64,000 nucleotides of DNA, from assembly GCA_023898465.1 (NCBI GenBank), contig CP060223.1, positions 832,001 through 896,000 on the forward strand, written 5' to 3'. The position numbers were made by a program, and so were the translations under genes. Below, one piece after another: positions 12,941 through 63,069 of this stretch (positions within the stretch are counted from its first letter, which is position 1; each line of letters opens with the position of its first letter). The notes beneath the pieces are model-generated. The model made no database searches and was not told the origin of the DNA. It saw nothing but the letters and a program-made list of their open reading frames with translations. The stretch comes from Candidatus Nomurabacteria bacterium. GTDB lineage: Bacteria; Patescibacteriota; Patescibacteriia; HK-STAS-PATE-3.

Positions 12941-13026
12941 TGCTTTTTCTTTTACCACGGCGAGGCAGAGAAGTCCCACCTATGTGTTTATTATTACCCA
13001 ATAGCCAAGGCGTCCCGGCCTTGGCA
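12941..13026. repeat. REP-like structured repeat, copy A (core acggcgaggcagagaagtccc...cccaatagccaaggcgtcccggccttggc)
   Basis: 85-90% identical to the copies at 13882-13966 and 16604-16686. Contains the imperfect palindrome gccaaggc-gtc(c/t)cg-gccttggc and terminal 8-bp inverted repeats (gagacgcc/ggcgtctc in copies B and C). Sits immediately after a terminator T-run. Confidence 0.7.
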
Positions 13027-13052
13027 GTTTTTTTCTTTTACCTTACGCATTG

Positions 13053-13082
13053 ACAATTTTCGTATTTTAGGGTAGAATGCTC
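13053..13082 (+). promoter_or_regulatory. Consensus-like sigma70 promoter TTGACA-17-TAGAAT
   Basis: ttgacaattttcgtattttagggtagaat read directly. Confidence 0.65.
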
Positions 13083-13167
13083 AGTCATAATCTGACACCG
13101 TTTTTTGACACCGTTGACGGAAAGTCGTCAACAAGAACTCACGCAACCCTATCAGAGGAGGGGCGTC

Positions 13168-13803
13168 ATGTGCGACTTGATCCGGGTATACTTCGACTGT
13201 ATGCGACACGGGGAGAGGGAGGGAGATCAACTCACCGCCCTCGGAACCAGGCAGGTCTCTGCCTCGGCTGAGGCCAACCTGGCTGGAACGCGCTATCTCT
13301 TGGCCTTCCACACAGGGATGACCCGCACTTACCAGACCGCCGAGACTATCCTTTCTACCCTGGAGGGGGCCGGCTCCTTGACCCCTCGAGCAGAAGAGGG
13401 CTTCGGCGTGGTTTGGGCACTGAATCAAAAGTGGCCTATCCAGACCGCCCAAGACCAGATCAAGAGTCTCGTAGCCAGCGGCGCTGCTGAGACTGCCGCT
13501 CTTTGGACCTCCTCCTGGCCACCCGCCCTCGCCATCCTTGGACGCTTCCTTGGCACGCTGGAGAAGTGGACAACCTATGCAGCCATGCGTGCTGCTGAAG
13601 ACGGATCACCGGTCGGTGATGGAGTCCGGTTCTTAGTGGCCAGCCACAGCCCCTGCGCTGAACTCGCCGCCCTCGATCCTTCCGCCACTCCGCGTCTCGG
13701 CCCGGCTGACGGTATCACCTACGAAATCGAGGTGGACATCAGAAACCTCGGGATAGTGATCACCTCCTCCGAGGTCTGGCGCTGCCCCGAAGGAGTCGAG
13801 TAG
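13168..13803 (+). CDS. Histidine phosphatase superfamily protein (phosphoglycerate-mutase-like branch)
   Basis: Perfect SD gaggagg before ATG at 13168 (MCDLIRVYFDCMRHGEREG...). The RHGE catalytic motif sits near the N-terminus and a later ASHSP His motif follows. High-GC. Confidence 0.55.
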   Translation: MCDLIRVYFDCMRHGEREGDQLTALGTRQVSASAEANLAGTRYLLAFHTGMTRTYQTAETILSTLEGAGSLTPRAEEGFGVVWALNQKWPIQTAQDQIKSLVASGAAETAALWTSSWPPALAILGRFLGTLEKWTTYAAMRAAEDGSPVGDGVRFLVASHSPCAELAALDPSATPRLGPADGITYEIEVDIRNLGIVITSSEVWRCPEGVE

Positions 13804-13857
13804 CTTTCCCGCTCTTTCGCCCTGAGACGCTCAGCGTCTTCACCCGGGCACCCGAAG

Positions 13858-13888
13858 CCGTAGACTTCTCCAGTCTGCGGCTTTTTTC
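13858..13888 (+). terminator. Rho-independent terminator (ccgtagac-ttctcca-gtctgcgg then cttttttc)
   Basis: 8-bp stem with one mismatch plus a T-run, read directly. Confidence 0.6.
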
Positions 13889-13966
13889 TTTTACCACGGC
13901 GGGACAGAGACGCCCCTCCTATGTGCTTATTATTACCCCATAGCCAAGGCGTCTCGGCCTTGGCGG
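13882..13966. repeat. REP-like structured repeat, copy B
   Basis: See copy A. Core acggcgggacagagacgcccctcctatgtgcttattattaccccatagccaaggcgtctcggccttggcgg. Confidence 0.7.
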
Positions 13967-13987
13967 AGCTTATGAAGACTTGAAAAA

Positions 13988-14016
13988 AACACATGTTCGT
14001 GTATGATGGCCTCGAT
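13988..14016 (+). promoter_or_regulatory. sigma70-like promoter TTGAAA-16-TATGAT
   Basis: Read directly upstream of the 14059 gene. Confidence 0.5.
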
Positions 14017-14058
14017 CACATAATGTACCTTGCAGATAACAAGTAGGAGGTATCAGAC

Positions 14059-14391
14059 ATGTCTGGCTTCGGAATTTCCCTCACTGAATATGAGATAGGA
14101 TTCAGCTCTCAGGATCCTTGGAGTTTTACTGACAGACTCTCCCGATTGGGAGTCATGACCACCCATGGCCTGATCGTCGGGGAACTGTCATCAGGACAGG
14201 GTGACGCGATTCTCTGGATCGATGAAGCATCTCTCTCATCAGTCCCGATCCAATGGGTCGTTCCAAAATCAGCCCACACACTTCATGGAGTCACCACACA
14301 CATTGTGGAAATTCCTGAAGATGAAATCATTTGCTTCGCCGATCCTCCCAAGCCGATCCGTGCCTATGGCATAGACCCCGGACTTCTATGA
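14059..14391 (+). CDS. Hypothetical protein (110 aa), high-GC
   Basis: SD aggagg 7 nt before the ATG. No known motif. Confidence 0.45.
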   Translation: MSGFGISLTEYEIGFSSQDPWSFTDRLSRLGVMTTHGLIVGELSSGQGDAILWIDEASLSSVPIQWVVPKSAHTLHGVTTHIVEIPEDEIICFADPPKPIRAYGIDPGLL

Positions 14392-14411
14392 CTGTCCACT
14401 ACGACACCCAT

Positions 14412-14445
14412 CACTTCCTGATAGGGTGTCTTTCTTTTACATTGA
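14412..14445 (+). terminator. Rho-independent terminator (gacaccc ... gggtgtc then tttctttt)
   Basis: 7-bp stem plus a T-run, read directly. Confidence 0.55.
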
Positions 14446-14448
14446 CCC

Positions 14449-14478
14449 AATACCTCATTCTTGCTAATCTGGGCCCGC
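14449..14478 (+). promoter_or_regulatory. sigma70-like promoter TTGACC-17-TAATCT
   Basis: Read directly upstream of the 14540 gene. Confidence 0.5.
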
Positions 14479-14539
14479 TACTGCTAGCACTTGAGAGTCT
14501 AGCTCATTGGAAATTGAATCCAACCAGTGAGGGAAACAC

Positions 14540-15028
14540 ATGCGACTCCAAATCACCGTGACGAATGATGTCGACGTCGACGTCATTCATCGAGTTCTCA
14601 AATCCCCTGCGTTCGCCAACAAGCTCTTCCATGAGATCGTCGGCACGCTCTTTCCTGAACAGACGGTGGGGCCAGCCGAGTTCATGATCGAGGAGCCGGT
14701 ACGAGCACTGGGCTGTGTCCCTGAGACGCCTCTCGGGATCCGACTCACCCTACTCGAAGTAAGGCAGGATAGGATCCCGGTCAAGACCTTCCACCAACTG
14801 GTGGCAAAGATGACTGAGCTACTCGGAACCGCCTTGACTGCCTACCTTGGACCCAGGGCGGGTCATGTTCAGACCTGCAGCTTCCTGATGCTCGACCGCG
14901 CCATCGAAACGACGCCTGGTAGCGGGATACTGAGCACGGTCATCAACTCGGAACCTCGCTGGGTCGACCTGAGGACCTACCCCGGAGTCACCGAGTCCGC
15001 TACGACGCCGGTCGGAGCCTGCGGCTAG
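14540..15028 (+). CDS. Hypothetical protein (162 aa), high-GC
   Basis: SD gagggaa before the ATG. No known motif. Confidence 0.45.
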   Translation: MRLQITVTNDVDVDVIHRVLKSPAFANKLFHEIVGTLFPEQTVGPAEFMIEEPVRALGCVPETPLGIRLTLLEVRQDRIPVKTFHQLVAKMTELLGTALTAYLGPRAGHVQTCSFLMLDRAIETTPGSGILSTVINSEPRWVDLRTYPGVTESATTPVGACG

Positions 15029-16394: not shown

Positions 16395-16432
16395 TGACGC
16401 CGTACCTAGCAAGGTGCGGCGTCTTCTTTATG
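16395..16432 (+). terminator. Rho-independent terminator (gacgccg ... cggcgtc then ttctttatg)
   Basis: 7-bp stem plus a T-rich tail, read directly. Confidence 0.5.
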
Positions 16433-16994
16433 TAAAACCTTTTTCCTCATATGCGTGATAAGAAGACCAATTCCAATCCTTTGGATCTTTTACCAAGCTA
16501 GCACGTACTGGATTGTAGTGGATATAATGAATGAGATGGTGGAGATATTGGTCAGTATCTACTACGCGGTCATAAAAAGAATCTTGCCATATCTTTTTCA
16601 TGCGACGGCGGGACAGAGACGCCCCGCCTATATGTTTATTATTACCCATAGCCAAGGCGTCTCGGCCTTGGCGGGGTATATCGGCGTCTCGGCCTTGGCG
16701 AGACTTATACATTTGTTGAGTCGTATAACTTTTAATACTATGCATCACCTCCGACACATTCTTCTTCCCTATTATCTCAAACAACACATGGATGTGATCT
16801 GGCATCACCACGTAGGCTAGCAGCCGTATCCAATGTTTCTTATGCAAGAAGAACAGAGTCTCAACGACAATCCTGGAGAGTTCTTTATTCAAGAATAGCT
16901 TTTTCCGTCGGTGGGTATTTGCGGTGACAAAATACACCCTTGTTTCAGCGTTGTAGGTACGACGAAGACGAGACATGAGGACACCTCGTGCCAC
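16428..16994 (-). mobile_element. REP-associated tyrosine transposase (RAYT / TnpA_REP, IS200-IS605 Y1 HUH family) carrying an in-frame REP-like insertion of about 33 codons between the HuH and catalytic-Tyr regions
   Basis: Co-linear with E. coli RayT motifs: VYFVTANTHRRKKLF, AYVVMPDHIHVLF (HuH), IWQDSFYDRVV and DTDQYLHHLIHYIHYNPVRASLV...DWNWSSY. The segment SRQGRDADIPRQGRDALAMGNNKHIGGASLSRRR is encoded by repeat copy C. Confidence 0.75.
16604..16710. repeat. REP-like structured repeat, copy C (core plus a partial tandem 3-prime hairpin) inside the RAYT coding sequence
   Basis: acggcgggacagagacgccccgcctatatgtttattattacccatagccaaggcgtctcggccttggcgggg followed by tatatcggcgtctcggccttggcgagac. 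Confidence 0.7.
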
Positions 16995-17039: not shown

Positions 17040-17624
17040 CTACCCATACTTCGCCAGAAGTAATCGGGCTGCCTCGCGAATATCTTCCACCCGGTAAAAG
17101 ATAAACTTACCTTGCGTGCTAATGCCCCATTCTAGTATTAATCCCTTCTTCGGCATACGGCACGCCAAGAGAATACGTTGTTTTTCAGCAGGGCTAAGAA
17201 ATTTTTTTAACCCAATGCTTTGGGTGAGTTTACCTTTTTGATAGGTGTAACTAGCTGTCACTTTCCCATAGCGCATGAGGTTCACAATTGGGCCACGAGT
17301 TGCTTCAATAACTACGCGATCACGCTCCAGTAAAATTGTGCCGCCTTTTTTCCATTTCCATGAAGGGTAGACAACAAACAAGGCGCGATGAGGGTGCTCG
17401 CGCTGCAGACGATCAACAGTGGCGGCAACTTTACTTGGTGCCACCCAATTCGCATACAAGTTTTTCCACGGACCACCGCGTACTTCCACAGTGCGAATTG
17501 TCCAGCCACGATATGCATCAATGTTTTGAATACCACGCAGCTCTTTTGAAGAACGCACAAATTGCCACTCAGGATGAGGTAGACCAGCTGCGTCTATTTT
17601 CTTTAGCCCTTGTAGGATGGTCAT
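17040..17624 (-). CDS. Truncated ATP-grasp-like protein related to the PEP-synthase/PPDK N-terminal nucleotide-binding domain (lacks the Gly-rich loop)
   Basis: AAGLPHPEWQFV resembles the aGlPVPpGFvi segment. VVIEATRGPIVNLMRYGKVTASYTY aligns with LIIEAGFGLGEAVVSGQITPDSYVV of the gene at 33780-34745. 4-nt overlap with the upstream gene. Confidence 0.4.
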   Translation of the reverse strand: MTILQGLKKIDAAGLPHPEWQFVRSSKELRGIQNIDAYRGWTIRTVEVRGGPWKNLYANWVAPSKVAATVDRLQREHPHRALFVVYPSWKWKKGGTILLERDRVVIEATRGPIVNLMRYGKVTASYTYQKGKLTQSIGLKKFLSPAEKQRILLACRMPKKGLILEWGISTQGKFIFYRVEDIREAARLLLAKYG

Positions 17625-19231
17625 AACTTACGGACAATTCCTTTCGTTGCATCGACCTCCACTTGGTCACCGTCTTTCAATACTTTGGTAGCAATCTTTG
17701 TGCCAATGACGCAGGGGATTTTTAGCTCCCGAGAAACAATGGCTGCATGCGAAGTTACGCCACCCTGCTCGGTCACAATCGCTGCAGCTTTTTTCATCGC
17801 TGCTACAATGTCCGGGTCAGTAGCAATCGAAACAAGAATATCACCGCGTTGCATTTTTGCCATATCCTTTGGACGAATAATAATCTTAACTCGTCCAGTC
17901 GCTTTTCCTACACAACCTGTCTGACCATGAAGCTCTTCACTTGATTCGTGCTTCATAGACTGCAACTGCTTCTTCATTCTCTTTGCTGCAGCGCCTACGA
18001 GAATAGTATCCCTATTCTTTTCACTGATGTAGACGCATTCTTTCACTCGTTGTTTCAGCATCGATCGAGATAAATGACCACGAGTTAAGGCGGCATGAAC
18101 TTCTTTAGGCAACATGAAGCGCATTTCTTTGAGTGAAATGTGGAGACGCCGGGCAATTTCTTTTTGCAAAAATTCCATTTTATAAAGTGCATATATCTGC
18201 GCAAAGCGACGATAAATTTTTGTTACCATGAAATCACCAAAGGCTAAGAAAAGCGTTTTCCATTTTCCGCTAATTCGGTATTGTCGCAGGTAGCGTTCAC
18301 GCAAACTATTTGCAGTCTGTAATTTCTTCTTTTCCTCTTTGAGCAACGCGGCGATGTCAGACTTCTGACCAATAAGTTTCACCAGCTCTTTTAGGTAGTA
18401 CGTAAAATGCGCAGTTTCACCAATCCACATCCTCGGTACATAGAAGTAGCTCGCATAATGCTTTTGTATACGTTTCAGTATTTCCGGACTTATCGCATCT
18501 ATCAATTGGTCAGCTCGCTGCTCTAGACCATGCTCAAATTCTTCGGTATGCGTTTGCCAGCCATAGGGTCCTGCTTCTTTATTTAAGAAAGTAGAATATA
18601 TATCAGCGAATAATTTTTTCTGTTTGGCATTTTTTTGTATGGCAAAAGCAATGTGCAAAAAATCTTCACGTTCTTTCTGAATCAGTGAAATGCTTCGTGG
18701 ATGAGTGAGCGCGACAAACACCTCATTTACTTTTGCTTCAGGTACTCCTTGCGTTGCTAAATACTGCTTCATCCGATCAGTGAGGTTGTTGTGAAACATA
18801 TCTGCAGCAACCGGTATCCAACACCACTGATAGTACTCCGTGTGCAAACGATCATGCTCAGTATATAATTGCCACAACTTAGTATTACTCTGCTTCTCTA
18901 AGCCCGTCTCGGGTAGCTTTTCAGTAAAGCGTCGTAAGCGATCTGCTTGATGCAGTATCTCTTTATTTACTTGTGTGGCAAAGGCAGGCTCTTGAATAAA
19001 ACGATTAACAATGTGATCGCCCTCGGTCTTCGCATCATCGTGATCATAATAAAACCAGAGATGGTAGCCCTGGTAATAAGTAGCCACTCGTTGATACGCT
19101 CGTCCATTCGGTTTTGCAAACTCATTAGTAAAACATGACAACCAGATTTGCGAAAAAGCAAAATCAATATCTGGAATATCCTCAGCTAGCATCCAATTGA
19201 TACTTTGCTTTTGTATTTTAGGAGAGCTCAT
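17621..19231 (-). CDS. PEP-utilising-enzyme mobile (phosphohistidine swivel) domain protein, paralog C: novel ~440-aa helical N-domain plus C-terminal His domain
   Basis: C-terminus GGVTSHAAIVSRELKIPCVIGTK matches the PpsA/PPDK/RPH phosphohistidine domain. No ATP-grasp or PEP-binding TIM-barrel motifs. Confidence 0.7.
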   Translation of the reverse strand: MSSPKIQKQSINWMLAEDIPDIDFAFSQIWLSCFTNEFAKPNGRAYQRVATYYQGYHLWFYYDHDDAKTEGDHIVNRFIQEPAFATQVNKEILHQADRLRRFTEKLPETGLEKQSNTKLWQLYTEHDRLHTEYYQWCWIPVAADMFHNNLTDRMKQYLATQGVPEAKVNEVFVALTHPRSISLIQKEREDFLHIAFAIQKNAKQKKLFADIYSTFLNKEAGPYGWQTHTEEFEHGLEQRADQLIDAISPEILKRIQKHYASYFYVPRMWIGETAHFTYYLKELVKLIGQKSDIAALLKEEKKKLQTANSLRERYLRQYRISGKWKTLFLAFGDFMVTKIYRRFAQIYALYKMEFLQKEIARRLHISLKEMRFMLPKEVHAALTRGHLSRSMLKQRVKECVYISEKNRDTILVGAAAKRMKKQLQSMKHESSEELHGQTGCVGKATGRVKIIIRPKDMAKMQRGDILVSIATDPDIVAAMKKAAAIVTEQGGVTSHAAIVSRELKIPCVIGTKIATKVLKDGDQVEVDATKGIVRKL

Positions 19232-20331
19232 GCTCCTAATCTTCGCACAATTCCCTGGTTCGCGTCTACTTCTACGAGATCGCCGCTTTGTAGACTACTG
19301 GTAGCAAATTTTGTACCAATAACGCAAGGAACTTTCAACTCCCGGGCTACGATTGAAGCGTGACTAGTCACTCCACCTTCATCAGTAACAATCGCCCCAG
19401 CTCGCTTCATGGCTGGTATATAACGCGGATCAGTCATTGAGGTTACTAAAATTTCGCCCTGGCGTAGTTTTGTAGCATCGGCGATTTTTTGAATTAAACG
19501 CACTTTGCCTTTTACCTTGCCAGGGAAAGCCACGTTGCCCTTGAGTAGCCCCTTCGTTGCTTTCGGTAATGACAAACCAAAGCGTTTCAATGCGCTAGCT
19601 GAATTTGAGTACGCATATACGTTTTTGCCTTGCTTCAACACAAAACGTTTTCTTCGATTACGTAGCCTTTTTATCGACGGGAGTTTTCCAGAATTTAAGT
19701 ACTCAGTAAATTCACTAAGTAGCAAATACTCCAAAACCTCTATTGCGAGCTTTTCAGACTTTTCAATTTGACGCAGTAATCTTTTCTGCAAATCAATACC
19801 TACCCGGTAAAAGTCAGCTCCTTGTGCACGGCCTTGTAAGAAGAGTTTCAGGACTGCGGGAGTAACTTGATCTGAAACAAACTCTGGCACTTCGATACAA
19901 GCAACTAAGAACGGTAGAGCATCGTGAAAATATTCATGCAATTGAAGTATCGCCGCTTTCGGATCAGCGTGCTCCTGTTGTACAAATATATTATACGAGC
20001 GAAGTAAGGCATCGTGCTGCTTTTTTTGCTGCTTCAGTTTTGCCAGCGTACCATGTGTTTTTACCCAACCTTGCGCTGCGCCTTGTAAATCTTCATCCGC
20101 CATAAAGTGCCATAAAACACCATTCTCAACATACACATGGATTGGGCGAATCTGATGCGAAAAAAAATCTCGTGAAGCTTTATTAAGAAATGCTTCAATA
20201 ACTACTGAGGTTGCTAATACAGTATAATCTCTTTGATGTGGGGTATAGTGAAGCTTCATAGCTTTTACTCTAGCACATAATTCAGCACTCTTATCAAGAA
20301 AGAGGCGGCAGTTCATATTGACTGCCGCCAT
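19228..20331 (-). CDS. PEP-utilising-enzyme mobile domain protein, paralog B (shorter N-domain, 367 aa)
   Basis: C-terminus GGVTSHASIVARELKVPCVIGTK. 4-nt overlap with paralog C. Confidence 0.7.
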   Translation of the reverse strand: MAAVNMNCRLFLDKSAELCARVKAMKLHYTPHQRDYTVLATSVVIEAFLNKASRDFFSHQIRPIHVYVENGVLWHFMADEDLQGAAQGWVKTHGTLAKLKQQKKQHDALLRSYNIFVQQEHADPKAAILQLHEYFHDALPFLVACIEVPEFVSDQVTPAVLKLFLQGRAQGADFYRVGIDLQKRLLRQIEKSEKLAIEVLEYLLLSEFTEYLNSGKLPSIKRLRNRRKRFVLKQGKNVYAYSNSASALKRFGLSLPKATKGLLKGNVAFPGKVKGKVRLIQKIADATKLRQGEILVTSMTDPRYIPAMKRAGAIVTDEGGVTSHASIVARELKVPCVIGTKFATSSLQSGDLVEVDANQGIVRRLGA

Positions 20332-20610
20332 GTAGACGCGAGCCCCACAGAGCTCTTTCCCTAGGTCTGTCTACCTGACCGAGTTCGCCCAAAGACGATC
20401 TCCTGCTGTTTACCTCTTTCGAGGTGGCTTGGACTTGCTCCGCATGAGGGGACAGCAGTTATTCCTCGCAACGGGGTCCCACACCCGAGACTTCCGGTTG
20501 GCCGTATCCGTTGCAGCTTCTTGAAGAACAATGCGGAGTCACCGCGAAGTCTCGATTAGGACAATGCCACCCGCTTCTTCATGAGAGAAACCTCCCTTCC
20601 ATCAAAAAGC
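20332..20610 (-). promoter_or_regulatory. Internal promoter (extended -10 TGgTATTAT) plus a ~270-nt GC-rich structured leader with a tiny SD-preceded ORF (MKKRVALS)
   Basis: Minus-strand reading: ttgctc-N18-tggtattat, then gggagg-N9-atgaagaagcgggtggcattgtcctaa. Downstream lie a 9-bp long-range stem (cgagacttc/gaagtctcg), a GNRA hairpin (cctc-gaaa-gagg) and a palindrome (agagctct). GC is far above the flanks. Confidence 0.35.
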
Positions 20611-20661
20611 CATGGCATTAAAAATAATACCACGCTGTACTTATACTGGCGAGCAATTTTT

Positions 20662-22227
20662 TTACAACTTTCTGACTAAACCCTTGGTAGCATCCACTTC
20701 CACCTTGTCACCATCCTTCAAAATCTTATTCGCTACCTTCGTCCCTACTACGCAGGGCACACCAAGCTCGCGCGAGACAATAGCCGCATGTGAAGTCAAA
20801 CCTCCGGCGTTGGTCACGATTGCAGCGGCTAGCTTCATTGCTGGTACCAGACTGGGATAGGTTGTCTCAGAAACCAAAATATCACCTTTTTTCATTTTTG
20901 GAATATCCGCCGGCACCTCAATAATTTTTACCGTACCAGAAGCAGCTCCCGGAGAAGCGCATGAACCCGTTAGCTCACTTGCCTCGGTGGTAATCAAGGT
21001 ATCCTCTTTAGGAATTTCTTTCATGAACTTCTTTGCCTTCTGACCAGTCAAAACGATATATTGCTTCTTATCGCAATACGCCACTGTCTCCCGAGTTCGC
21101 GCCAGCAGCTCTTTCATAGTCGGGATCGACTTCCCTTGGAGCAAATCCTCAATCTCCCATGAGTTCAGGGCTCGCACAGTTTCCAAAGTCAGCTTATGTC
21201 GCTGAGCAATTTCACGGAAGAATGGTTCATAGCAGTACATACCATGATAGAGTGCGCCTTTTCGAAATTCCTTTATGTACACTATTTCTTGTCCCATGCG
21301 GATGAGCTGCCATATATTGCCTTGGAGGTGTAGAGATTTTTTTAATCGAGCCTGTTTTTGCTTCAGGAGCCTTTCCTTCACCTTCATATCAGCCAAAATC
21401 TGTTTGGGTGACTCACCGCTCTTTAGTAATTCCCTCCAACGAGTGAGGAAGTAGCGAAAGGAATAAGCTGGCCCCTTATACGCGTAGGGAATCCATCGCC
21501 ATTTCTCATAGTGCGCTCGCAGTAAAGCAGCTACTTTTTGATCCACTTCTGCTAATCCCTTTTCGGCCTTTGCGATGGGCGAACGAAGTAGGTGATTTCG
21601 CACCTTAGCAGAGCGCCGAAGCTGATCAGTAATCTGCAAAAACTCTCTTTCCTCCTGCGCAGCAAAACTCAAGCGGGGTGGGCTAGTAAGTAAACTAAAT
21701 ATTTCCGGCAAGGTTGCTGAGTCACCATAACAATCAATTTGTTTCTTGAGCGCTGCTTCTATACCTGTTGACACGCGGGCCTGATCAGCATCAGCCAACC
21801 AAGTGACCGCCGCACCGACCCCGTGGGAAAGTACATGCCAGCGTAAGACCTTACGAAACTCTCGAAGTAACTGTACATCAGTCATCTCACGGATTGGCAG
21901 TGCATATAAATTCCGAGAAGCCTGCATGAAGTTGATTGACCAATCCTCAACCTGCTTCAAGGTCTTTAATCCCCATTGTGGCTTTTGCAACATCTTCTGC
22001 GATAAGCCATCGGCCTGGGTATCAAATTCAGATCGCCGAAACCACATCTGAGAAAAGTCACCTTTGTAGTAGGTAAAGTACTCACTCAGGTGTCCGCCGA
22101 GTCCCATTCGCTTCCATTCCAAAAGAAAAAAGCGAATCGGCGTCCCCATCATAAAAATAGTATTTTCAGTTATTTCAGCTGGGACAAACCACTTGTCACT
22201 TTGCTTTTTTATGGCCTTTTTACCCAT
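20662..22227 (-). CDS. PEP-utilising-enzyme mobile domain protein, paralog A (521 aa)
   Basis: C-terminus GGLTSHAAIVSRELGVPCVVGTK. Overall collinear with paralog C. Confidence 0.7.
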   Translation of the reverse strand: MGKKAIKKQSDKWFVPAEITENTIFMMGTPIRFFLLEWKRMGLGGHLSEYFTYYKGDFSQMWFRRSEFDTQADGLSQKMLQKPQWGLKTLKQVEDWSINFMQASRNLYALPIREMTDVQLLREFRKVLRWHVLSHGVGAAVTWLADADQARVSTGIEAALKKQIDCYGDSATLPEIFSLLTSPPRLSFAAQEEREFLQITDQLRRSAKVRNHLLRSPIAKAEKGLAEVDQKVAALLRAHYEKWRWIPYAYKGPAYSFRYFLTRWRELLKSGESPKQILADMKVKERLLKQKQARLKKSLHLQGNIWQLIRMGQEIVYIKEFRKGALYHGMYCYEPFFREIAQRHKLTLETVRALNSWEIEDLLQGKSIPTMKELLARTRETVAYCDKKQYIVLTGQKAKKFMKEIPKEDTLITTEASELTGSCASPGAASGTVKIIEVPADIPKMKKGDILVSETTYPSLVPAMKLAAAIVTNAGGLTSHAAIVSRELGVPCVVGTKVANKILKDGDKVEVDATKGLVRKL

Positions 22228-22248
22228 ATATATGCATTATACCATTGA

Positions 22249-22277
22249 CAAAAAGCTCTACCTATGCTATCCTCTCG
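22249..22277 (+). promoter_or_regulatory. Consensus-like sigma70 promoter TTGACA-17-TATCCT
   Basis: ccattgacaaaaagctctacctatgctatcct read directly. The complementary strand carries an extended -10 (aTGgTATAAT) reading toward the 22227 gene. Confidence 0.55.
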
Positions 22278-22284
22278 CGTAGTT

Positions 22285-22640
22285 TGCAGAGCAGTTGTTC
22301 TTTCGCAAACTCAAAAGAGTCGAACGCTTGGGCCCGTCAGGGTTAAGCGTGAGACTCAGAGGGACATCCTTTCGAAAGCCGAAGTGGACTGGTGAATACC
22401 AGAACACGTAGGCAGGAGAAAGAGATGGCCCGAGAAGATGAGGCGTTTGACTCGTTTACCGAATTGAGGACGCTTTCCGCCCACGGGCGGATAAGTGAAC
22501 GAGAAGCCAAGTAGCGTAACCGGCATCAGTAGTGTTTTTGTAGAATTACCGGACAACGTACTTGCGACCCAAAAGGAATATGGGTCACCAAACGCCTCCC
22601 AACAGATGGGAGTTCTTTTCATCTAAGGGAGGAAAAAGAG
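22285..22640 (+). promoter_or_regulatory. ~350-nt 5-prime leader with several hairpins and an SD-preceded 29-codon uORF (22415-22504); candidate cis-regulatory RNA
   Basis: Hairpins gtttgc...gcaaac and ccgcccacgggcgg. uORF MAREDEAFDSFTELRTLSAHGRISEREAK with aggag 7 nt upstream. No match to riboswitch consensus sequences I can recall. Confidence 0.3.
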
Positions 22641-23321
22641 ATGGCGAATATCGTCGTCTTTGATCCGATCCGTGAACATTTCAGTGACTACATGATTGGG
22701 CTAGCCAGTCATCAGGTTATCGTGAGAAATACGGTCGAGGACGTCAATGGGACGCTCCGATCCTTCTCACCCGACCTGATCCTGGTAGCTGAATCAGAGC
22801 AGTCAGCTGCCGTGATCGCGGCCGTGCAACGGAGTGATCGACGCATACAAGCGCCAACACTCCTTATCCCTGCATCACTCGAAGGACCTGATGACCAGCG
22901 ATGGCAACAGAGCCGTCAGCTCGGCGTCGCGGGATGGATCCCTCGACCTCAGCAACGAGGCTTCAAGTCACTCCTGGCTGAAGACTGGCGACGTAATATC
23001 GTCAGTCTCATGCTCTGGCTATGCAATCAGTTGCACCGAGAGCAACCACTGAGTGTGTGGTTCCGAGAACATCAAAGCGTCGTGGCTATGGTGGGCCAAG
23101 AAACCTATCATCGCCTCATCACCGGCTCATCCATCCAGTATGCACCCGAAGAATATCGTCGACTCCAGAGGACACTGGCAATCTGGGGAGTACGCTATCC
23201 GCTGGATCGCTATCTCCAGGCTGTCGCTCTTGCAGGACGCAAGGCAGAGGCACAGAGACTCTCAGATCGCGTGCTTACAAACATGGCGAGGCGCATGCTT
23301 TCGTCTGAAGCACAAGGCTGA
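22641..23321 (+). CDS. Receiver-like (pseudo-REC / CheY-like fold) domain protein, high-GC
   Basis: SD agggagg. N-terminus MANIVVFDPIREHF...SPDLILVAESE follows the REC pattern (hhhDD...PDhhhhD) but with D-P instead of DD. Confidence 0.4.
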   Translation: MANIVVFDPIREHFSDYMIGLASHQVIVRNTVEDVNGTLRSFSPDLILVAESEQSAAVIAAVQRSDRRIQAPTLLIPASLEGPDDQRWQQSRQLGVAGWIPRPQQRGFKSLLAEDWRRNIVSLMLWLCNQLHREQPLSVWFREHQSVVAMVGQETYHRLITGSSIQYAPEEYRRLQRTLAIWGVRYPLDRYLQAVALAGRKAEAQRLSDRVLTNMARRMLSSEAQG

Positions 23322-23352
23322 CTTCTACCATTCCTGCAAGGGAGGTTCTGAA

Positions 23353-24072
23353 ATGTCGCACATCGTGATCCTCGACCAAGACCCGATCCGACAGCTGTGG
23401 TATCAATCCGCGCTGCCGGGTCACGTCATCTCCTTCGTGGAGACCGCCCTCGGAGCGATTCGATTGGTGCAGCAGGTTCCCACCGCTGCCATCATTGCCG
23501 AGTACTTCGATGGGTCTGGCACTCGGCTCCTGGAGGAGCTCGATCGCCTGGTCCGGAACTGTCGCTTCGCCGCCCCGCCAGTCTACCTGACCGGCACCAT
23601 CACTATGCTGGACAACACGATGGAGAAGGCCGTGCAGCTCGCGCAGAATCGTGGAGCTCAGGACTTCATCCCGCATCCGATCAGTCGTGAGCGCTTCCGG
23701 GAACGGCTGGCCGACGTGCTCGAACAAGACAGAGGAGGTCGTGTCGTCGGACACATCACCTTTTGTGAGGCACCGCCGGTCACGACCTCGGAACTCGTCG
23801 ACCTGACCTATGAAATCCCGGAGGCGCGCGACCTGATCAACGCAACGATCGGGATGCGCACCTTCTCCAGCATGCTGAATCGAGCTCTGGCTGTGGAAGG
23901 ACACGGACCCGCCCAGATCGTCTGTGCGGAAATCGGTGTCTGGGCTACGGAAGGAATTCCCACGCTCACCGCTGCTGAGTTCTCGGCTGAGCTCGGCGAT
24001 AAGGAGAGAACGGCCTGTCAGGATATTCTCTTCGAGATCGCCCACTCCCTGCTCTTTGACCGCGCTGCCTAG
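23353..24072 (+). CDS. Second receiver-like domain protein with an unknown C-terminal domain, high-GC
   Basis: SD agggagg before ATG at 23353 (MSHIVILDQDPIRQ...AAIIAEYFDG). The 23053 extension is in a frame overlapping the previous gene and lacks an SD. Confidence 0.4.
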   Translation: MSHIVILDQDPIRQLWYQSALPGHVISFVETALGAIRLVQQVPTAAIIAEYFDGSGTRLLEELDRLVRNCRFAAPPVYLTGTITMLDNTMEKAVQLAQNRGAQDFIPHPISRERFRERLADVLEQDRGGRVVGHITFCEAPPVTTSELVDLTYEIPEARDLINATIGMRTFSSMLNRALAVEGHGPAQIVCAEIGVWATEGIPTLTAAEFSAELGDKERTACQDILFEIAHSLLFDRAA

Positions 24073-24183
24073 CGCAACCCGAGGCGTCTACTTTCCCCAA
24101 GTAGGCGCCTTTCTTCTTGACTTTTTTATCTAAGTGGATAAACATGCCCACGGACACTGTTCGACAAACCATAGGAGGCGCAC

Positions 24184-24432
24184 ATGCCGGAAATCGCACT
24201 GGAACAGAAGTTCATCGACATCGTAGCTGAGCAACTTGGCGTCGACAAGAGACGGGTCACCCCTAACCAGAGCGCCAAGGGCGACCTCGGTGCGGACTCG
24301 CTCGATCTCGTCGAGCTCATCATGGCCCTGGAAGAGGGTTACGAAATCAAGATCGACGACGGAGAGCCGGACAACCTGGAAAACCTGGGTGAACTCCAGG
24401 CGCTCATTCTGTCCAAGGTCGCCGCCAAGTAG
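24184..24432 (+). CDS. Acyl carrier protein
   Basis: SD ataggagg. 82 aa, acidic, with the DLGADSLDLVELIMALEE phosphopantetheine-attachment (DSL) motif. Confidence 0.85.
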   Translation: MPEIALEQKFIDIVAEQLGVDKRRVTPNQSAKGDLGADSLDLVELIMALEEGYEIKIDDGEPDNLENLGELQALILSKVAAK

Positions 24433-24462
24433 TCCAAGACAACCCGTTCCTTCCCTAGCAAC

Positions 24463-24500
24463 CAAAAAGCAGTTCCTGCACGGAGCTGCTTTTTCTCTTG
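24463..24500 (+). terminator. Rho-independent terminator (gcagttcc-tgcac-ggagctgc then tttttctc)
   Basis: 8-bp stem with one mismatch plus a T-run. Confidence 0.55.
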
Positions 24501-24530
24501 ACGATAATGTAAAAATTAGTTAGAGTCCTA
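24501..24530 (+). promoter_or_regulatory. sigma70-like promoter TTGACG-17-TAGAGT upstream of the tRNA
   Basis: ttgacgataatgtaaaaattagttagagt read directly. Confidence 0.5.
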
Positions 24531-24542: not shown

Positions 24543-24619
24543 GCCGCCATCGTCTAGTCTGGTCAGGACGCCAGGTTTTCATCCTGGTAACAGGGGTTCG
24601 AATCCCCTTGGCGGTACCA
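24543..24619 (+). tRNA. tRNA-Glu (anticodon UUC), CCA encoded
   Basis: Cloverleaf by eye: acceptor GCCGCCA/UGGCGGU (G1-U72 wobble), anticodon stem CCAGG/CCUGG with loop UUUUCAU, T-arm GGGGUUCGAAUCCCC. Body nearly identical to E. coli tRNA-Glu. Confidence 0.85.
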
Positions 24620-31547: not shown

Positions 31548-33704
31548 TTAGCTAGCGGACTGCTCAATTGGCAGACTGAGCAACAGTCTCCCCTCAGCAA
31601 CCGTCACCCGCACTCCAGACTCCTCCAGGGTCCCCAGGGCGGCGTGCAACTCCCGCATATCAGCCAAGGACAAGGCTGCATCACCGTTGCTTACCCTGAG
31701 TCCTAGCGCCTCGACTTTTGCCACCGCATCAATTGCTTCGCGCAATTTCTCCGGCCCAGTCCCGTTTCCAAGAATGTGCGCGTGTATGCGGACAATTTCT
31801 ACTGCGTTGGAGAATGTAGTAGCAGGCAAGGTAGGTTCGAGAACCTTCTTCAATGATGTGGCTACCTCATTCCCAGGCACTACCTCGGCAGCGGTCGAAC
31901 TTGTTGCGTCGTCTTCCTCCACCTCAGGCGTATCCTTGTCATCACCCAGTGGAGGAACAGGATCGGTCGCTTCTCCCACTTCTGCTGTTGGAGAAACATC
32001 CGGCTGCACTACTCCTGACTCATCTCCCTTTTCAGGCGCCGACGAAGCTTCCTGGGGCGCCTCTCCTTGTTGCTCGAAGAAGCGTTCACCTTTCTCCGTC
32101 AGCTCAAAGTGCGGACCGCATGAGATGGTATCGTTCTCATCCACTGCGACCCAAGCGTGCTCAACTAGGCAGTCGAACACATGAGCTCCGGCCGGATCAC
32201 CGAGATGGTCATTCAGCGCTCCGCGACCATCGTAAGGCTCAGTCTCCCGAACCTTCGCTAGATGCAGGAAGCACTCCAGATACTCGCCAGTCAACTCAGT
32301 CGCACTGATCTGACCTTCGATCTCAGGAGCAACTTCTCCACCAGGCGCGCCTTGATCTGGCTGAACGTCTCCTTGGTGATCTCGCAACCACCTGAGAGCT
32401 GCTTCAGCCTTCTCGGTGAGAAAAAAGCGAGGAGCCGATGAGTTTGGACTCCTGTCCTCGCGATCGTACCTGACGTAATGATGCAGCTGCGTCAACCACT
32501 GTTGCGGCCCAGTCCCTCCTCCTTGCTGTGCCGACTTAACTATCCCAATAGCACCATAGCGTTCTGACTCAGGAACAAGCGCCATAGCAACGAGACCGCG
32601 CAGTCGGTCGCCTACTAAGCCAGGATGACCAGGCACTTCCCTGTCGTAGTCGACCCTGCGTGGATCAAGTCCAGGCTCAGTTGCCGCTCCAGAAGCCTCC
32701 TTCTCTAAGTCCTTCAACCCAGCGCACTGCAGGCTGAGTAGAAGGTCGTTGATCTGTGCACACAGCTCGTCTTCCTTCACGCCAGACTCGATATCCAGCT
32801 CGATAGACCAAACCAGTGCATCACGGTACACCCGCAACACCCAAGTGTCACCTTGCCGGCGAGCCAACTGCGAAGCAATCTCCGGCGTGAACTTTTCATC
32901 ACGCAGCGTATTGCCTGTACTCGCCTCCCGCACTTGAAACAGATTCCCTACACGAGTGCAGAGATCTGCCAGAGTCAGTGCAGGGACTCCATCATGCTCT
33001 TCTCTTTTTCCACCTGGCACCATCTCCTCCTCTCCGGGTGTGTAGACGAATTCCCTGACGCTCTTTTGCAACTGCCGTTGCAGATCAACAGGACGCGAGG
33101 GCCGAGCTGCCTTCACCTGCATCGTCATGACAAAGCCGACGCCTTCTCGGACTACCCGAACGCCATGCTTTGTTTGCTGGAAGGTAGCCGGACTAGCTAC
33201 GGCTTTCAGACTAATCTCAGCAATTGGGTCGGCAGTAACCTTCTCTACCCCGGCCTGACGCTCCAACCACGCAGCGAAGGCGCGTGATTCGGCCTCCATC
33301 TGTTTGAGCGACGGCACCTCAGGCACCTCGACTGAAACGATGCCCTTCTTTGAGCGAGGCGGCCCTCCACGTGCGTGCTTCATCTTCGGACTCCTTTCCT
33401 CTTTGAGCGTTTGTGCAAAAGCTCTGATGGATTCGGAGCCCTGAAGCTCCTCGTAGTAACTCTGCCACATGAAACCATAGTCTCGTGCATACACCTCAAA
33501 ATCGATCGCCCAACCAGCCACATGCAAAGTGACGCACATCCTTGGGTATTTGGTTTCTAGATACAAACCATTCACCCTATCGCTTTTGAATGCATGCCAA
33601 TCCGTCGGTTGCACCCAGCCAACCCAAGGAAAAAGCCAGAGTAATTGATGCAATAACTCTGCATTTTCAATCATTTGAAGCGGGCATGACTCCGGAAATC
33701 GCAT
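31548..33704 (-). CDS. Large hypothetical protein (718 aa), strongly high-GC relative to its flanks; acidic C-terminal half
   Basis: Long ORF with coding periodicity and its own terminator. No recognisable domain. Confidence 0.5.
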   Translation of the reverse strand: MRFPESCPLQMIENAELLHQLLWLFPWVGWVQPTDWHAFKSDRVNGLYLETKYPRMCVTLHVAGWAIDFEVYARDYGFMWQSYYEELQGSESIRAFAQTLKEERSPKMKHARGGPPRSKKGIVSVEVPEVPSLKQMEAESRAFAAWLERQAGVEKVTADPIAEISLKAVASPATFQQTKHGVRVVREGVGFVMTMQVKAARPSRPVDLQRQLQKSVREFVYTPGEEEMVPGGKREEHDGVPALTLADLCTRVGNLFQVREASTGNTLRDEKFTPEIASQLARRQGDTWVLRVYRDALVWSIELDIESGVKEDELCAQINDLLLSLQCAGLKDLEKEASGAATEPGLDPRRVDYDREVPGHPGLVGDRLRGLVAMALVPESERYGAIGIVKSAQQGGGTGPQQWLTQLHHYVRYDREDRSPNSSAPRFFLTEKAEAALRWLRDHQGDVQPDQGAPGGEVAPEIEGQISATELTGEYLECFLHLAKVRETEPYDGRGALNDHLGDPAGAHVFDCLVEHAWVAVDENDTISCGPHFELTEKGERFFEQQGEAPQEASSAPEKGDESGVVQPDVSPTAEVGEATDPVPPLGDDKDTPEVEEDDATSSTAAEVVPGNEVATSLKKVLEPTLPATTFSNAVEIVRIHAHILGNGTGPEKLREAIDAVAKVEALGLRVSNGDAALSLADMRELHAALGTLEESGVRVTVAEGRLLLSLPIEQSAS

Positions 33705-33779: not shown

Positions 33780-34745
33780 TTATACAGCAAGCGTCGTAAT
33801 CGGGCGGCTTTGCGTCACATAAAATTTCTTCTTTTCCTTGGCCCACTCGACATCCACCGGGAAACCATAATGCCGCTCTATCAATACAATCAATTTCGCC
33901 AGGGAGATAATTTCTGCTTTTGTTAAGCACTGCTTCCCGCCCTTTGCTGCGCTGAGAGATTTCCAAGAATTTCCACCCTTACTTGAACGGGCCAGCATCT
34001 TTTCCTGCTCCACAACATTCACGTCCAACAGTTTGAAACCGCGCTTATCAACCACATAACTGTCCGGCGTAATCTGACCCGAAACAACTGCCTCGCCCAG
34101 TCCAAAGCCAGCTTCAATGATAAGCTGGTTCTTATCTTGCGTCACCGGATGTACGGAAAAAGCAGTGCCCGATACTTCGCTCTGTACCATCTTCTGCACG
34201 ACAACTGCAACGGAAATCTTTTTCTTATGCAACTTTTGCTCGAATCGATAAAAAATTGCCCTTGGGGTAAAAAGAGAAGCCCAGCAACGCTGTACGTTTT
34301 TGAGAAGCTGCGCTTTCGTCGTATTTAAATAAGTATCAAGCTGCCCTGCCCAGGCAGCCGACGCGCTGTCCTCAGCCGTCGCACTTGAACGCACGGCCAC
34401 ATAGGACGCCTGAAGACGTGCATGTGCCGCGCTAATTTCCCTAGCAATATCTTTTGGCATCTTTGCCTTGAGGATCAAGCCTTGAATAATTTCACTCGCC
34501 AAATCAATAGTGTGCATTTCCCTCTTATCAACCTTAGCGAGTTGTGCTTGAATCTCCACCCCTAAATCTGTCTCAGCTAAAAAGCGCTCAAAAGCCTCAG
34601 CTGCAATAACAAAACCTGGCGGGACTGGAATTCCTGCCTGTGTCATCTCACCTAAACTAGCCCCTTTACCACCTGCTAAGCCCGCATCTTTTTTACCAAT
34701 CTGCTTGAAAAAATGTATGCATTCCATAGAGAAAGTATAGCACAA
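33780..34745 (-). CDS. Standalone PEP-synthase/PPDK N-terminal ATP-grasp nucleotide-binding domain protein (PPDK_N), 315-321 aa
   Basis: KKDAGLAGGKGASLGEMTQAGIPVPPGFVI Gly-rich loop. VAVRSSATAEDSASAAWAGQLDTYLN and IIEAGFGLGEAVVSGQITPDSYVVDK hallmark segments. No His or PEP-binding domain. Confidence 0.8.
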   Translation of the reverse strand: MCYTFSMECIHFFKQIGKKDAGLAGGKGASLGEMTQAGIPVPPGFVIAAEAFERFLAETDLGVEIQAQLAKVDKREMHTIDLASEIIQGLILKAKMPKDIAREISAAHARLQASYVAVRSSATAEDSASAAWAGQLDTYLNTTKAQLLKNVQRCWASLFTPRAIFYRFEQKLHKKKISVAVVVQKMVQSEVSGTAFSVHPVTQDKNQLIIEAGFGLGEAVVSGQITPDSYVVDKRGFKLLDVNVVEQEKMLARSSKGGNSWKSLSAAKGGKQCLTKAEIISLAKLIVLIERHYGFPVDVEWAKEKKKFYVTQSRPITTLAV

Positions 34746-61408: not shown

Positions 61409-61963
61409 CTAGGCTCGTTTCCGCAGTATCCTTGCCTGATATATTGTGGCGATTGTCTGGATACTCCCCATGACAATGAAGAGTGTTTGGAAAGAATATT
61501 GAGTTACAACAACGCCTCCCAAAATAATTGCTGCGCCGGTGACAATCAAGGCTGTACCCTCGGAAATACCCCACTCATAAGTATCGTGTTTACGATCTTC
61601 ATATTTGGCGTACAGCGCATCCCAAGTTGGTGTCGCAAGTGCCGCGGCAACTCCTAAGCCTGCTTGCACAATGAGGAGATGGAGAGGTGAACTCACAAAG
61701 AGATACCCGAAGGTGAATAGCGCATTCAGCGCGTAGCCAAGCATCATCATTTTTTCCTTTGAGTAGCCTTGGTCAATTATTTTACCAAAGAGGATATGAA
61801 GCACGCCGCCGACAATAAGATAGGTTGCCCAGGCCCAAGTGATCTCTAAAACGTCGCCGCCTACTTGCTCAGCAAAAACAGCGAAGAGTGGCCCAAGCAT
61901 GCCTTCGCCTAAATACCAGATGTTTGAACCGTAGAGTAAAATAGCTCGTTGTTCTTTCCCCAT
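61409..61963 (-). CDS. Small polytopic membrane protein (about 6 TM, MFS-half-like)
   Basis: 184 aa, hydrophobic throughout. No partner half nearby. Confidence 0.35.
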   Translation of the reverse strand: MGKEQRAILLYGSNIWYLGEGMLGPLFAVFAEQVGGDVLEITWAWATYLIVGGVLHILFGKIIDQGYSKEKMMMLGYALNALFTFGYLFVSSPLHLLIVQAGLGVAAALATPTWDALYAKYEDRKHDTYEWGISEGTALIVTGAAIILGGVVVTQYSFQTLFIVMGSIQTIATIYQARILRKRA

Positions 61964-62134: not shown

Positions 62135-62153
62135 GGCATCCCACCGTGAATAG

Positions 62154-63063: not shown

Positions 63064-63069
63064 GGTCGC

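Follow-up and report, generated by a model that had tools for sequence, protein, structure and literature searches.

A divergent c-di-GMP-II-class riboswitch likely controls CPR-restricted atypical-receiver paralogues in Candidatus Nomurabacteria

The c-di-GMP-II riboswitch, represented by Rfam family RF01786 and by the solved structure 3Q3Z, was reportedly described by Lee et al. in 2010. In a solved class II structure, a guanine of the ligand engages an A-U pair in a minor-groove triple (PMC7583470), and the class II members characterized so far are mostly ON switches (PMC9495366, PMC7583470). We found a divergent aptamer of this class (positions 22434–22530, plus strand) in the window, that is, in the whole 64,000-nt stretch of Candidatus Nomurabacteria DNA that was analyzed, where it makes up the 3' half of the leader preceding two adjacent genes, g1 and g2. 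Like the described class, it runs from P1 through an A, P1b (3 bp), and a UGA-type linker to P2, whose loop pairs with the 3' tail as a pseudoknot, and it is placed in a 5'-UTR together with an expression platform. The riboswitch is thus of a known class and represents a divergent subclass with a new gene association. We consider it likely that it controls g1 and g2, which are distant paralogues within a small CPR-restricted atypical-receiver family; the acyl carrier protein (ACP) gene further downstream is probably a separately terminated neighbor.

The consensus promoter TTGACA-17-TATCCT that a first-pass annotation of this DNA had placed ahead of the leader is indeed present: at 22245–22273 (plus strand), a sigma-70-type TTGACA box is followed by a 17-nt spacer and a TG-extended TATCCT, with 10 of 12 matches. 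By itself, the promoter is not above chance, with three promoter-like sites found versus 1.4 ± 1.1 in shuffled sequences; counterparts with the TTGACA/TGnTAnnnT pattern occupy the equivalent relative position before the riboswitch in other loci, and a 25-nt stretch at the promoter is identical in L001 and L002. The leader, approximately 360 nt long, is strongly structured (MFE, −146 kcal/mol vs −108 ± 5.5 kcal/mol in shuffles; z = −7.05). Its length and hairpins had been recognized at first pass, whereas the accompanying view of the leader as an untranslated spacer carrying a short upstream open reading frame (uORF) did not hold, as the c-di-GMP-II-class riboswitch and a second structured element, denoted motif X, occupy the leader.

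An Rfam scan of the leader, one of the checks proposed with the first-pass annotation, returned RF01786 below threshold in the window (23.7 bits, compared with the gathering score of 53.5 bits) and above it at the orthologous site in the close relative L001 (64.0 bits), the only one of the 14 loci to pass. At further orthologous sites, the scores were 42.8 (L254), 42.1 (L005), 35.5 (L252), and 21.3 bits (L251), and the shortfall of the window copy coincides with an extra hairpin in the P2 loop and a weak P1. In six loci, including the window, RF01786 ranked first among Rfam families at this position, and the rest of its clan scored lower than the canonical RF01786 model throughout. R1, the covariance model that we built for the aptamer, produced a single match in the 64-kb window (98.8 bits) and one match per locus in 12 loci, three of which lay outside the training set (50.1, 36.5, and 27.9 bits). 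Two additional loci, L028 (81.7 bits) and L182 (81.4 bits), bring the total to 14; these two were the only genuine matches from scanning genome and metagenome contigs (~600 Gb) with 17-mers, in which most matches were due to chance, given 17 nt searched against ~600 Gb. All riboswitch copies (14/14) stand upstream of genes for the same receiver-like protein family, which is the only target observed for this riboswitch subclass.

In the window, the aptamer comprises helices P1 (22437–22440/22524–22527), P1b (22442–22444/22506–22508; 3 bp), and P2 (22451–22459/22495–22503), the extra hairpin in the P2 loop (22476–22491), and a pseudoknot in which GGACGC pairs with GCGU-AA-CC (22468–22473 with 22514–22521), all on the plus strand, with the linker GUUUGA occupying the position of the UGA-containing linker in the Rfam model. 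Comparative pairing reproduces the P1/P1b/linker/P2 secondary structure of RF01786: in an alignment (A6) that is biased in favor of the structure through having been fitted to the model, 92.8% of the cells are paired, compared with 24–39% after sliding the partners. Covariation in the leader, also proposed as a check at first pass, was detected in the aptamer helices, where 12 pairs are changed on both sides and none of 500 shuffles reached the observed score. In P2, seven of the eight pairs show both-sided change, with up to six pair types per position; P1b is 100% paired, and the extra hairpin is retained in 10 of 12 loci despite unrelated sequences. P1 is short (3–4 bp) and pairs poorly in four loci. 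The pseudoknot is 100% paired in all 11 aligned copies, with the AA interruption kept, and, being invariant across the family, displays no internal covariation.

Compared with the described c-di-GMP-II riboswitches, the CPR copies keep the core, GAGGC...UGA...GAGCC-AGUA-G.G.AACCG, and the G-N-G-N-AA-CC form of the 3' tail. They differ in the pseudoknot, where two compensatory swaps turn the consensus GG-GCAC/GUGC-AA-CC into GG-ACGC/GCGU-AA-CC, in the very short P1, and in the addition, in most copies, of a 13- to 39-nt hairpin in the P2 loop, with a further hairpin at the linker in the L007 copy. Their hosts are of the CPR/Patescibacteria type, their target is a single protein family, and their ligand is putative. 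From sequence, the ligand would most likely be c-di-GMP, and the presence of diguanylate cyclases in Patescibacteria MAGs (PMC9938205) was counted toward the plausibility of this assignment. The two pseudoknot pairs that depart from the canonical ones lie by the presumed binding pocket, so that the ligand could differ. Under such a scenario, the same architecture would bind another cyclic or linear dinucleotide, the swapped pairs flanking the AA bulge having remodeled the pocket. Consistent with this possibility, ACGC/GCGU is found in all 14 copies where the consensus has the highly conserved GCAC/GUGC, and the sole A-U pair of the canonical pseudoknot, a candidate ligand-contact pair, is G-C here; furthermore, 13 of the 14 copies fall under the gathering score, and the exclusive gene association is unlike that of known c-di-GMP-II targets. 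Nevertheless, neither the AA bulge nor the CC/GG sub-helix nor the GAGCC-AGUA core has been lost, the canonical model prevails over its clan at every site, and the helix geometry is preserved by the compensatory swaps, and we regard a ligand other than c-di-GMP as unlikely.

The predicted expression platform lies between the aptamer and g1 (all coordinates on the plus strand). The anti-Shine-Dalgarno (anti-SD) sequence CCUCCC (22595–22600) is complementary to the g1 SD, GGGAGG (22627–22632), whereas the switching sequence CAAACGCCUC (22589–22598, within 22589–22600) can pair with the aptamer 5' strand GAGGCGUUUG (22440–22449). The platform also includes a terminator-like hairpin, CUCCCA/UGGGAG followed by UUCUUUUCAU (22596–22622), an equivalent of which, with a U-rich tail, is found in other loci too. 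In the MFE structures of the platform, the SD is paired to the anti-SD in 10 of the 11 loci with the SD in the folded segment, L251 being the exception. The competing duplex between the aptamer 5' strand and the switching sequence is predicted in 12/12 loci (9–14 bp; −12.6 to −19.5 kcal/mol) and is cognate-specific in L007 (−17.4 vs −12.2 kcal/mol) and L254 (−15.1 vs −7.4 kcal/mol). Free folding of the window sequence yields an MFE of −139.7 kcal/mol with the SD open, whereas enforcing the aptamer yields −127.6 kcal/mol with the SD fully paired. The predicted layout, with the promoter upstream, the anti-SD/SD helix, and a competing helix, is that of a 5'-UTR riboswitch with an expression platform.

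Because the anti-SD/SD helix competes with the long-range helix to the aptamer 5' strand, the folding model predicts a translational OFF switch, as opposed to the ON switches usual for the class. In this model, the promoter at 22245 would drive the ~360-nt leader, and the riboswitch would control g1–g2. When ligand is absent, GAGGCGUUUG would pair with CAAACGCCUC some 150 nt downstream, so that the anti-SD would be occupied and the g1 SD free. When ligand, most likely c-di-GMP, is present, the aptamer would fold and free the CCUCCC anti-SD, which would then bind the SD or contribute to the small terminator-like hairpin, lowering g1–g2 expression.

Directly 5' of the aptamer, motif X (22316–22438, plus strand; RNAalifold and model R2) comprises a pair of long, irregular hairpins, stem A (~22317–22357) and stem B (~22361–22432), with the 3' strand of the latter bearing the ATG of the presumed uORF. 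RNAalifold over five copies yielded 40 pairs, 20 of them with compensatory changes. With model R2, L002 had two matches and L007 one, besides the copy in the window itself (139.9 bits), and a new degenerate copy was also reported in L007 (11595–11716, minus strand); the second L007 copy used to train the model was not re-reported. An outer helix, CUUGGGCC/GGCCCGAG, was superseded by the two-hairpin structure and may persist as an alternative pairing. Motif X matched no Rfam family, a pattern scan across genome contigs gave 0 matches, and most of the loci have no counterpart. In its spacing of 0–3 nt from the aptamer and its duplication in L002 and L007, motif X is similar to the sensors of tandem riboswitches (PMC9481103), from which it differs in falling outside all Rfam families and in lacking a proposable ligand; it may serve for stabilization or protein binding instead of being an aptamer. 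The 29-codon SD-preceded uORF of the first-pass annotation (22425–22514, plus strand) overlaps stem B and aptamer positions 1–81. In L002, a relative with 87% identity, it stops after 12 codons and has lost its SD; in L007 it stops after 14 codons, and loci without motif X have no ATG at this position. As the frame is not conserved as coding and coincides with covarying helices, we judged that it is not a gene. A more speculative reading, rather improbable in our estimate, is that the subclass, with its swapped pseudoknot pairs and added hairpin, is a CPR-specific sensor of a ligand other than c-di-GMP, with the receiver-like family as a dedicated effector or feedback-controlled enzyme and motif X as a new tandem ligand- or protein-responsive RNA.

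The proteins encoded by g1 (226 aa; 22641–23321, plus strand) and g2 (239 aa; 23353–24072, plus strand) belong to a small family, of which a set of 1.8 billion proteins contains about 15 representatives, and in which a REC-like domain is followed by a helical C-terminal domain of ~110 aa without known counterparts. The g1 protein is a divergent member, recognized by hhalign against the family alignment A3 (97.5%; E = 7.7e-12; 221 columns); it is strain-restricted, with only self-matches among 5.8 billion proteins, and absent from the orthologous loci in L002 and L001. Judging from these alignments, g1 and g2 are distant paralogues. The family profile showed significant similarity to PDB receivers, including CheY (6er7; E = 1.2e-8; residues 1–120 aligned to 1–119), LuxO, YycF, and PhoB, the E-values down to 1.2e-8 referring to natural proteins and the aligned residues being 1–125; that is, the alignment to these receivers spans the N-terminal ~125 residues from end to end, with whole-domain profile homology to PF00072. 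Individually, 7 of 16 family members match PF00072; neither g1 nor g2 matched Pfam Response_reg even at E ≤ 1, such that the receiver relationship is visible only at the family-profile level. Searches of the two single proteins against Pfam and NCBIfam returned nothing meaningful, and weak matches to KDGP-aldolase and KDO-transferase were dismissed as noise. Single-sequence AF2 models of g1 and g2 were too poor to use (pLDDT of 34.5 and 47.8), and a Foldseek search with the g1 model found nothing at E ≤ 0.001, its top nonsignificant entries, response regulators (PorX), not being meaningful.

The first-pass annotation had described two CheY-like pseudo-receivers with D-P in place of the DD pair; it is supported in that both proteins are receiver-like, as seen with the family profile, and lack canonical phospho-residues. 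The catalytic quintet D12, D13, D57, T87, and K109 is not preserved in the family: g2 has D8, Q9, E50 at the phospho-acceptor position, G81 (with T80 and T82 adjacent), and H108 at the Lys position, whereas in g1 the corresponding residues are D8, P9, and A50/E51, with R in place of the Lys. No family member has an acidic residue equivalent to D13 or a Lys equivalent to K109 (R/H/L/M instead), and the T87 equivalent is not conserved; the β1-terminal Asp is mostly kept, and 14 of 15 members have Asp or Glu at the phospho-acceptor position. The receiver domain is probably non-phosphorylatable, as the first-pass annotation had expected, and no histidine kinase was found among the window ORFs scanned.

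AmiR-type antiterminators also employ pseudo-receivers. Together with the exclusive RNA-protein family pairing (14/14) and the position of the two motif X hairpins directly before the regulated sequence, this parallel would accommodate a leader that is mainly a protein-binding autoregulatory RNA, bound in AmiR/ANTAR style by the C-terminal domain of the receiver-like protein, with the likeness to an aptamer being ancestral. However, the C-terminal domain matches neither ANTAR (PF03861) nor any other RNA-binding domain, and its alignment (A8) found no relatives in Pfam or PDB; this orphan domain and the departures at D13, T87, and K109 set the family apart from AmiR-type and other PF00072 systems. 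Moreover, the full c-di-GMP-II core, the pseudoknot, and the SD-sequestering platform are conserved, as in a working ligand sensor, and most loci are devoid of motif X, all of which makes autoregulatory binding very improbable compared with a ligand-responsive riboswitch.

The third gene (24184–24432, plus strand) encodes, as annotated at first pass, a canonical ACP: the 82-aa product scored above the cut-offs of full-length models (TIGR00517, 71.2 vs 70.45; NF002148, 77.2 vs 71; PF00550, 44.5 vs 20.8, E = 1.9e-11) and has the phosphopantetheine site GADS39LD (D38-S39-L40). In length, HMM match, and DSL serine, it agrees with the type II ACP AcpP (TIGR00517), from which it differs in its GC3, foreign to the genome, and in the absence of FAS, PKS, and AcpS genes from the scanned ORFs. 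The high GC reported earlier is borne out by GC3 values of 0.73 (g2) and 0.77 (ACP), compared with 0.36–0.49 in neighboring genes, which suggests that the ACP gene came in together with g2. All three genes have GGAGG-type SDs, as described before; they are not uniformly tightly spaced, the g2-ACP gap being 111 nt and containing an intrinsic-terminator-like hairpin of 13 bp with a T-rich tail (24081–24111, plus strand), which is kept in L001 and L002 and at which an Rfam match to 'weev_FSE' was a false positive. Sequence inspection identified another hairpin with a U-tract after the ACP gene (24468–24490, plus strand). The ACP gene is thus probably a separate transcription unit, although some read-through of the g2 terminator into it may occur. 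Further downstream, a tRNA-Glu(UUC) gene (24543–24619, plus strand), with its own promoter-like site (24498–24526), lies at the right-hand border of the GC-rich block and at a strain-variable junction.

Examination of the homologous neighborhoods showed that each of the 14 riboswitch copies is followed by a family gene and that an ACP gene next to the family gene is rare, being found in 2 of 14 loci (the window and L002), a count that includes short contigs with little downstream context (L249, L008, L250, L028, and L182). In L001, the place of the ACP gene behind the g2 terminator is taken by a fragment of an IS200-like transposase. As stated at first pass, no FAS or PKS genes were found nearby; these, phosphopantetheinyl-transferase, AcpS, and GGDEF/EAL genes were all absent from the Pfam-scanned ORFs (2–16, 19–44.6, and 55–61 kb of the window, from a 1.08-Mb genome), a scan supplemented by Pfam calls precomputed for L003, a contig of the same strain, covering 12.6–24.6 kb, and excluding the ORFs at 42354–43424, 44669–54697 (a giant one), and 61409–63945. 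A three-gene operon behind a uORF-regulated leader, in which the ACP and two pseudo-receivers would form a signaling or acyl-transfer module, is scarcely credible and already largely refuted by the comparative data: the same-strand adjacency of g2 and ACP in two loci, their common unusual GC3, and a PlsC-type acyltransferase encoded 0.7 kb upstream of the g2 homologue in L001 speak for it, whereas the terminator between g2 and ACP, the 12 of 14 loci without an adjacent ACP gene, the transposase fragment in L001, and an unconserved uORF coincident with covarying RNA helices speak against it.

To our knowledge, regulation in CPR/Patescibacteria is almost unexplored, and our search of the literature returned no account of c-di-GMP riboswitches in these bacteria. 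Given that 13 of the 14 copies score below the Rfam threshold, class II riboswitches may be spread more widely than catalogued. The comparative results remove a tempting but unsupported ACP signaling hypothesis. The exclusive pairing of the riboswitch with the receiver-like family in 14/14 loci points to a direct connection in ultra-small bacteria by which an atypical receiver would be tied to a nucleotide second messenger, and it also provides the first functional handle on this orphan family.

The regulatory unit upstream of the receiver-like genes is real, but it is other than the first-pass annotation proposed: it consists of a divergent c-di-GMP-II-class riboswitch and an upstream RNA domain, predicted to control two paralogous atypical-receiver genes. 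The promoter described there is present (TTGACA-17-TATCCT, 22245-22273), with a TG-extended -10 element, as are the three ORFs with GGAGG-type Shine-Dalgarno (SD) sequences, namely, g1 (22641-23321), g2 (23353-24072), and an acyl carrier protein (ACP) gene (24184-24432). The hairpins of the leader also hold up, its structure being far above that of shuffled controls (z = -7.05). The role given to a 29-codon uORF (22425-22514) does not, since the frame lacks conservation: in the related locus L002 it is cut to 12 codons and its SD is missing, in L007 it is cut to 14 codons, and the ATG is absent from the corresponding place in other loci. The Rfam and covariation analyses lead instead to a c-di-GMP-II-class riboswitch.

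Every gene of the receiver-like family is preceded by a gap of 300-800 nt, and these gaps share the blocks GAGGCG ... GGACGCUUU ... GAGCCAAGUAGCGUAACCGGC ... CGCCUCC ... GGAGG-AUG. The best Rfam family at the aptamer site is c-di-GMP-II (RF01786), which scores 23.7 bits in the window, under the gathering score of 53.5, and 64.0 bits (E = 1.8e-12), above it, on L001, a close relative; elsewhere, the scores are 42.8 (L254), 42.1 (L005), 35.5 (L252), and 21.3 bits (L251). Every model element is present in the L001 alignment, with the loop/tail pseudoknot GG-ACGC / GCGU-AA-CC differing from the consensus GG-GCAC / GUGC-AA-CC by two compensatory swaps. Low RF01786 scores accompany an extra hairpin in the P2 loop, found in 10 of 12 loci with unrelated sequences that fold every time. 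A covariance model built from nine copies yielded exactly one match in each of 12 loci, three of them outside the training set, and a single match in the 64-kb window (22434-22530). Applied to 200 of 240 loci from a pattern scan, it recovered two further real cases (L028 and L182), both equipped with promoter and expression platform and followed by a family gene. On the model alignment, to which the sequences had been fitted, 92.8% of paired cells are complementary, versus 24-39% in slid controls; on the same model-fitted alignment, 12 pairs are altered on both sides, and none of 500 shuffles matched the observed score. The leader holds a divergent riboswitch of the c-di-GMP-II class. At L028 246-360, the riboswitch is complete and accompanied by its family gene, on a 6.4-kb contig binned in an 'uncultured Gammaproteobacteria' MAG; either the binning of this contig is wrong or the system also exists outside CPR.

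In its 5' half (22316-22438), the leader of the window folds into two long hairpins with compensatory changes over five copies. This motif, ~120 nt long and 0-3 nt from the aptamer, recurs in leaders of three related genomes and matches no Rfam family. Its covariance model hits the window once (22316-22438), L002 twice (716-838 and 1041-1156), and L007 (7022-7262, with a degenerate copy at 11595-11716 on the minus strand beside a tRNA-Glu gene). The second L002 copy replaces g1 and lies immediately 5' of the g2 SD.

In most folds of the expression platform, CCUCC(N) is paired with the SD. Just 5' of this anti-SD, and overlapping it, the window carries CAAACGCCUC (22589-22598), complementary to the aptamer 5' strand GAGGCGUUUG (22440-22449); an equivalent duplex of 9-14 bp (-12.6 to -19.5 kcal/mol) is present in all 12 loci, and in the divergent L007 and L254 changes in one strand are matched in the other. 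The unconstrained fold of the transcript (-139.7 kcal/mol) contains this long-range helix, with the SD unpaired, whereas with the aptamer enforced (-127.6 kcal/mol) the SD (22627-22632) pairs with 22595-22600, an energy gap that the pseudoknot and ligand would need to pay. A small hairpin with UUCUUUU (22596-22622) may add transcription attenuation. Taken together, the alternative pairings and platform folds predict an OFF switch, whereas characterised class II riboswitches tend to be ON switches (PMC9495366, PMC7583470). The candidate ligand favoured by the AA bulge and core, both of which are retained, is c-di-GMP; the swapped pseudoknot pairs allow for another specificity. Diguanylate cyclases are encoded by Patescibacteria (PMC9938205). 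In L253 (5890-6000), the stretch that separates the riboswitch platform from the annotated family gene contains another SD and a short ORF (MEYIPIPRYRTSW...); the ORF overlaps the main start region and could be a leader peptide of that lineage.

Protein searches showed g1 and g2 to be identical to H6760_04240 and H6760_04245 of a Candidatus Nomurabacteria MAG (1.08-Mb contig) of the CPR/Patescibacteria lineage. Taken singly, neither matched a Pfam family, and word-indexed searches returned near-identical sequences only. A g2 profile HMM, run exhaustively against 1.84 billion representatives, uncovered a small family (15 matches, mostly ~240 aa), PF00072 being matched by 7 of 16 members. The profile of the family alignment matched solved receiver domains across residues 1-125, including CheY (6er7, 1.2e-8), LuxO, YycF, PhoB, and NtrC. 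Although BLASTP detected no similarity between g1 and g2, g1 aligns to the g2 family over 221 columns (hhalign 97.5%, E = 7.7e-12), and the two are therefore distant paralogues. The equivalent of the D12 aspartate is retained in 12 of 14 members, and that of D13 is acidic in none. The phospho-acceptor position holds Asp (8), Glu (6), or Cys (1), corresponding to E50 in g2 and A50/E51 in g1; the T87 equivalent is not conserved, and that of K109 is R, H, L, or M, never Lys. The pseudo-receiver label is fair. A helical segment of ~110 residues at the C terminus matched nothing in Pfam or the PDB; single-sequence structure predictions of g1 and g2 gave unusable models.

The third gene is a canonical ACP, as annotated (TIGR00517, 71.2 bits; PF00550, 1.9e-11; Ser39 in DSL). 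It is not tightly spaced, however: the 111-nt gap after g2 holds a 13-bp hairpin and T-tract (24081-24111). The only non-tRNA Rfam match above gathering score in the window, the viral frameshift element 'weev_FSE' (24083-24109; 40.1 bits versus 40), is a false positive on this plain terminator hairpin. L002 shares the promoter and leader of the window and lacks g1, the leader being followed by g2 and the ACP gene; in L001, a shorter leader lies immediately 5' of g2, and an IS200-like transposase fragment occupies the place of the ACP gene 3' of the g2 terminator. Distant family members have differing contexts, several between PvlArgDC/unknown genes and dnaG-rpoD; no ACP gene was seen near them, some contigs being too short to show the downstream side. 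FAS, PKS, AcpS, and GGDEF/EAL domains were absent from the ORFs scanned with Pfam (in 2-16, 19-44.6, and 55-61 kb of the window, plus the Pfam calls of the same-strain contig L003 for 12.6-24.6 kb). The ACP gene is a neighbour, not a conserved partner of the receiver-like genes.

Other features of the surroundings deserve mention. In L001 and L007, IS200-like transposase genes come after the family gene. Three tandem paralogues (17621-22227) carry a C-terminal PEP-utilizer mobile (phosphohistidine) domain as their sole domain, and a stand-alone PPDK_N ATP-grasp protein is encoded 12 kb away (33780-34745); the combination resembles a PEP-synthase-like phosphotransfer system split into separate proteins. 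The receiver-like gene of L007, too, has PEP-utilizer genes as neighbours. Between two PEP-utilizer genes of the window, a 330-nt intergenic region (20332-20661, minus strand; moderate structure, z = -2.6) shares 79% identity with L001 1186-1515, which is flanked by a gene for a PlsC-type acyltransferase rather than a PEP-utilizer; the region could be a leader or small RNA. Three copies of a 70-82-nt repeat (12944-13025, 13883-13966, and 16605-16674; 88-94% identity) are located close to an IS200/Y1-type transposase gene (16428-16994) and are possible REP-like or IS-end elements. A giant minus-strand ORF (44669-54697) encodes 3342 aa; several ORFs of ~350 aa without Pfam matches and Big_13 Ig-like proteins follow it, and the whole is probably a cell-surface gene cluster.

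The g1-g2-ACP block looks horizontally acquired: GC content is 59% in 23-24 kb versus 47% in the whole window, and GC3 is 0.55, 0.73, and 0.77 for g1, g2, and ACP versus 0.36-0.49 for flanking genes. A tRNA-Glu gene (24543-24619) marks its right end. GC-rich patches at 13001-15000 and 32001-33000 (0.53-0.58 versus 0.47), whose ORFs have no Pfam matches, may be other acquired segments. L003, a same-strain contig (99.975% identity over 12 kb), departs from the window exactly at the tRNA-Glu 3' end (window 24611, L003 11971). Beyond this point, L003 has a DUF378 gene and the window a Zn/Mn ABC transporter operon; the junction may be the edge of an island that varies between strains, or a join made in assembly.

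The riboswitch class is known; the variant is new, and so is its exclusive association with one gene family, an orphan, CPR-restricted family of receiver-like proteins.
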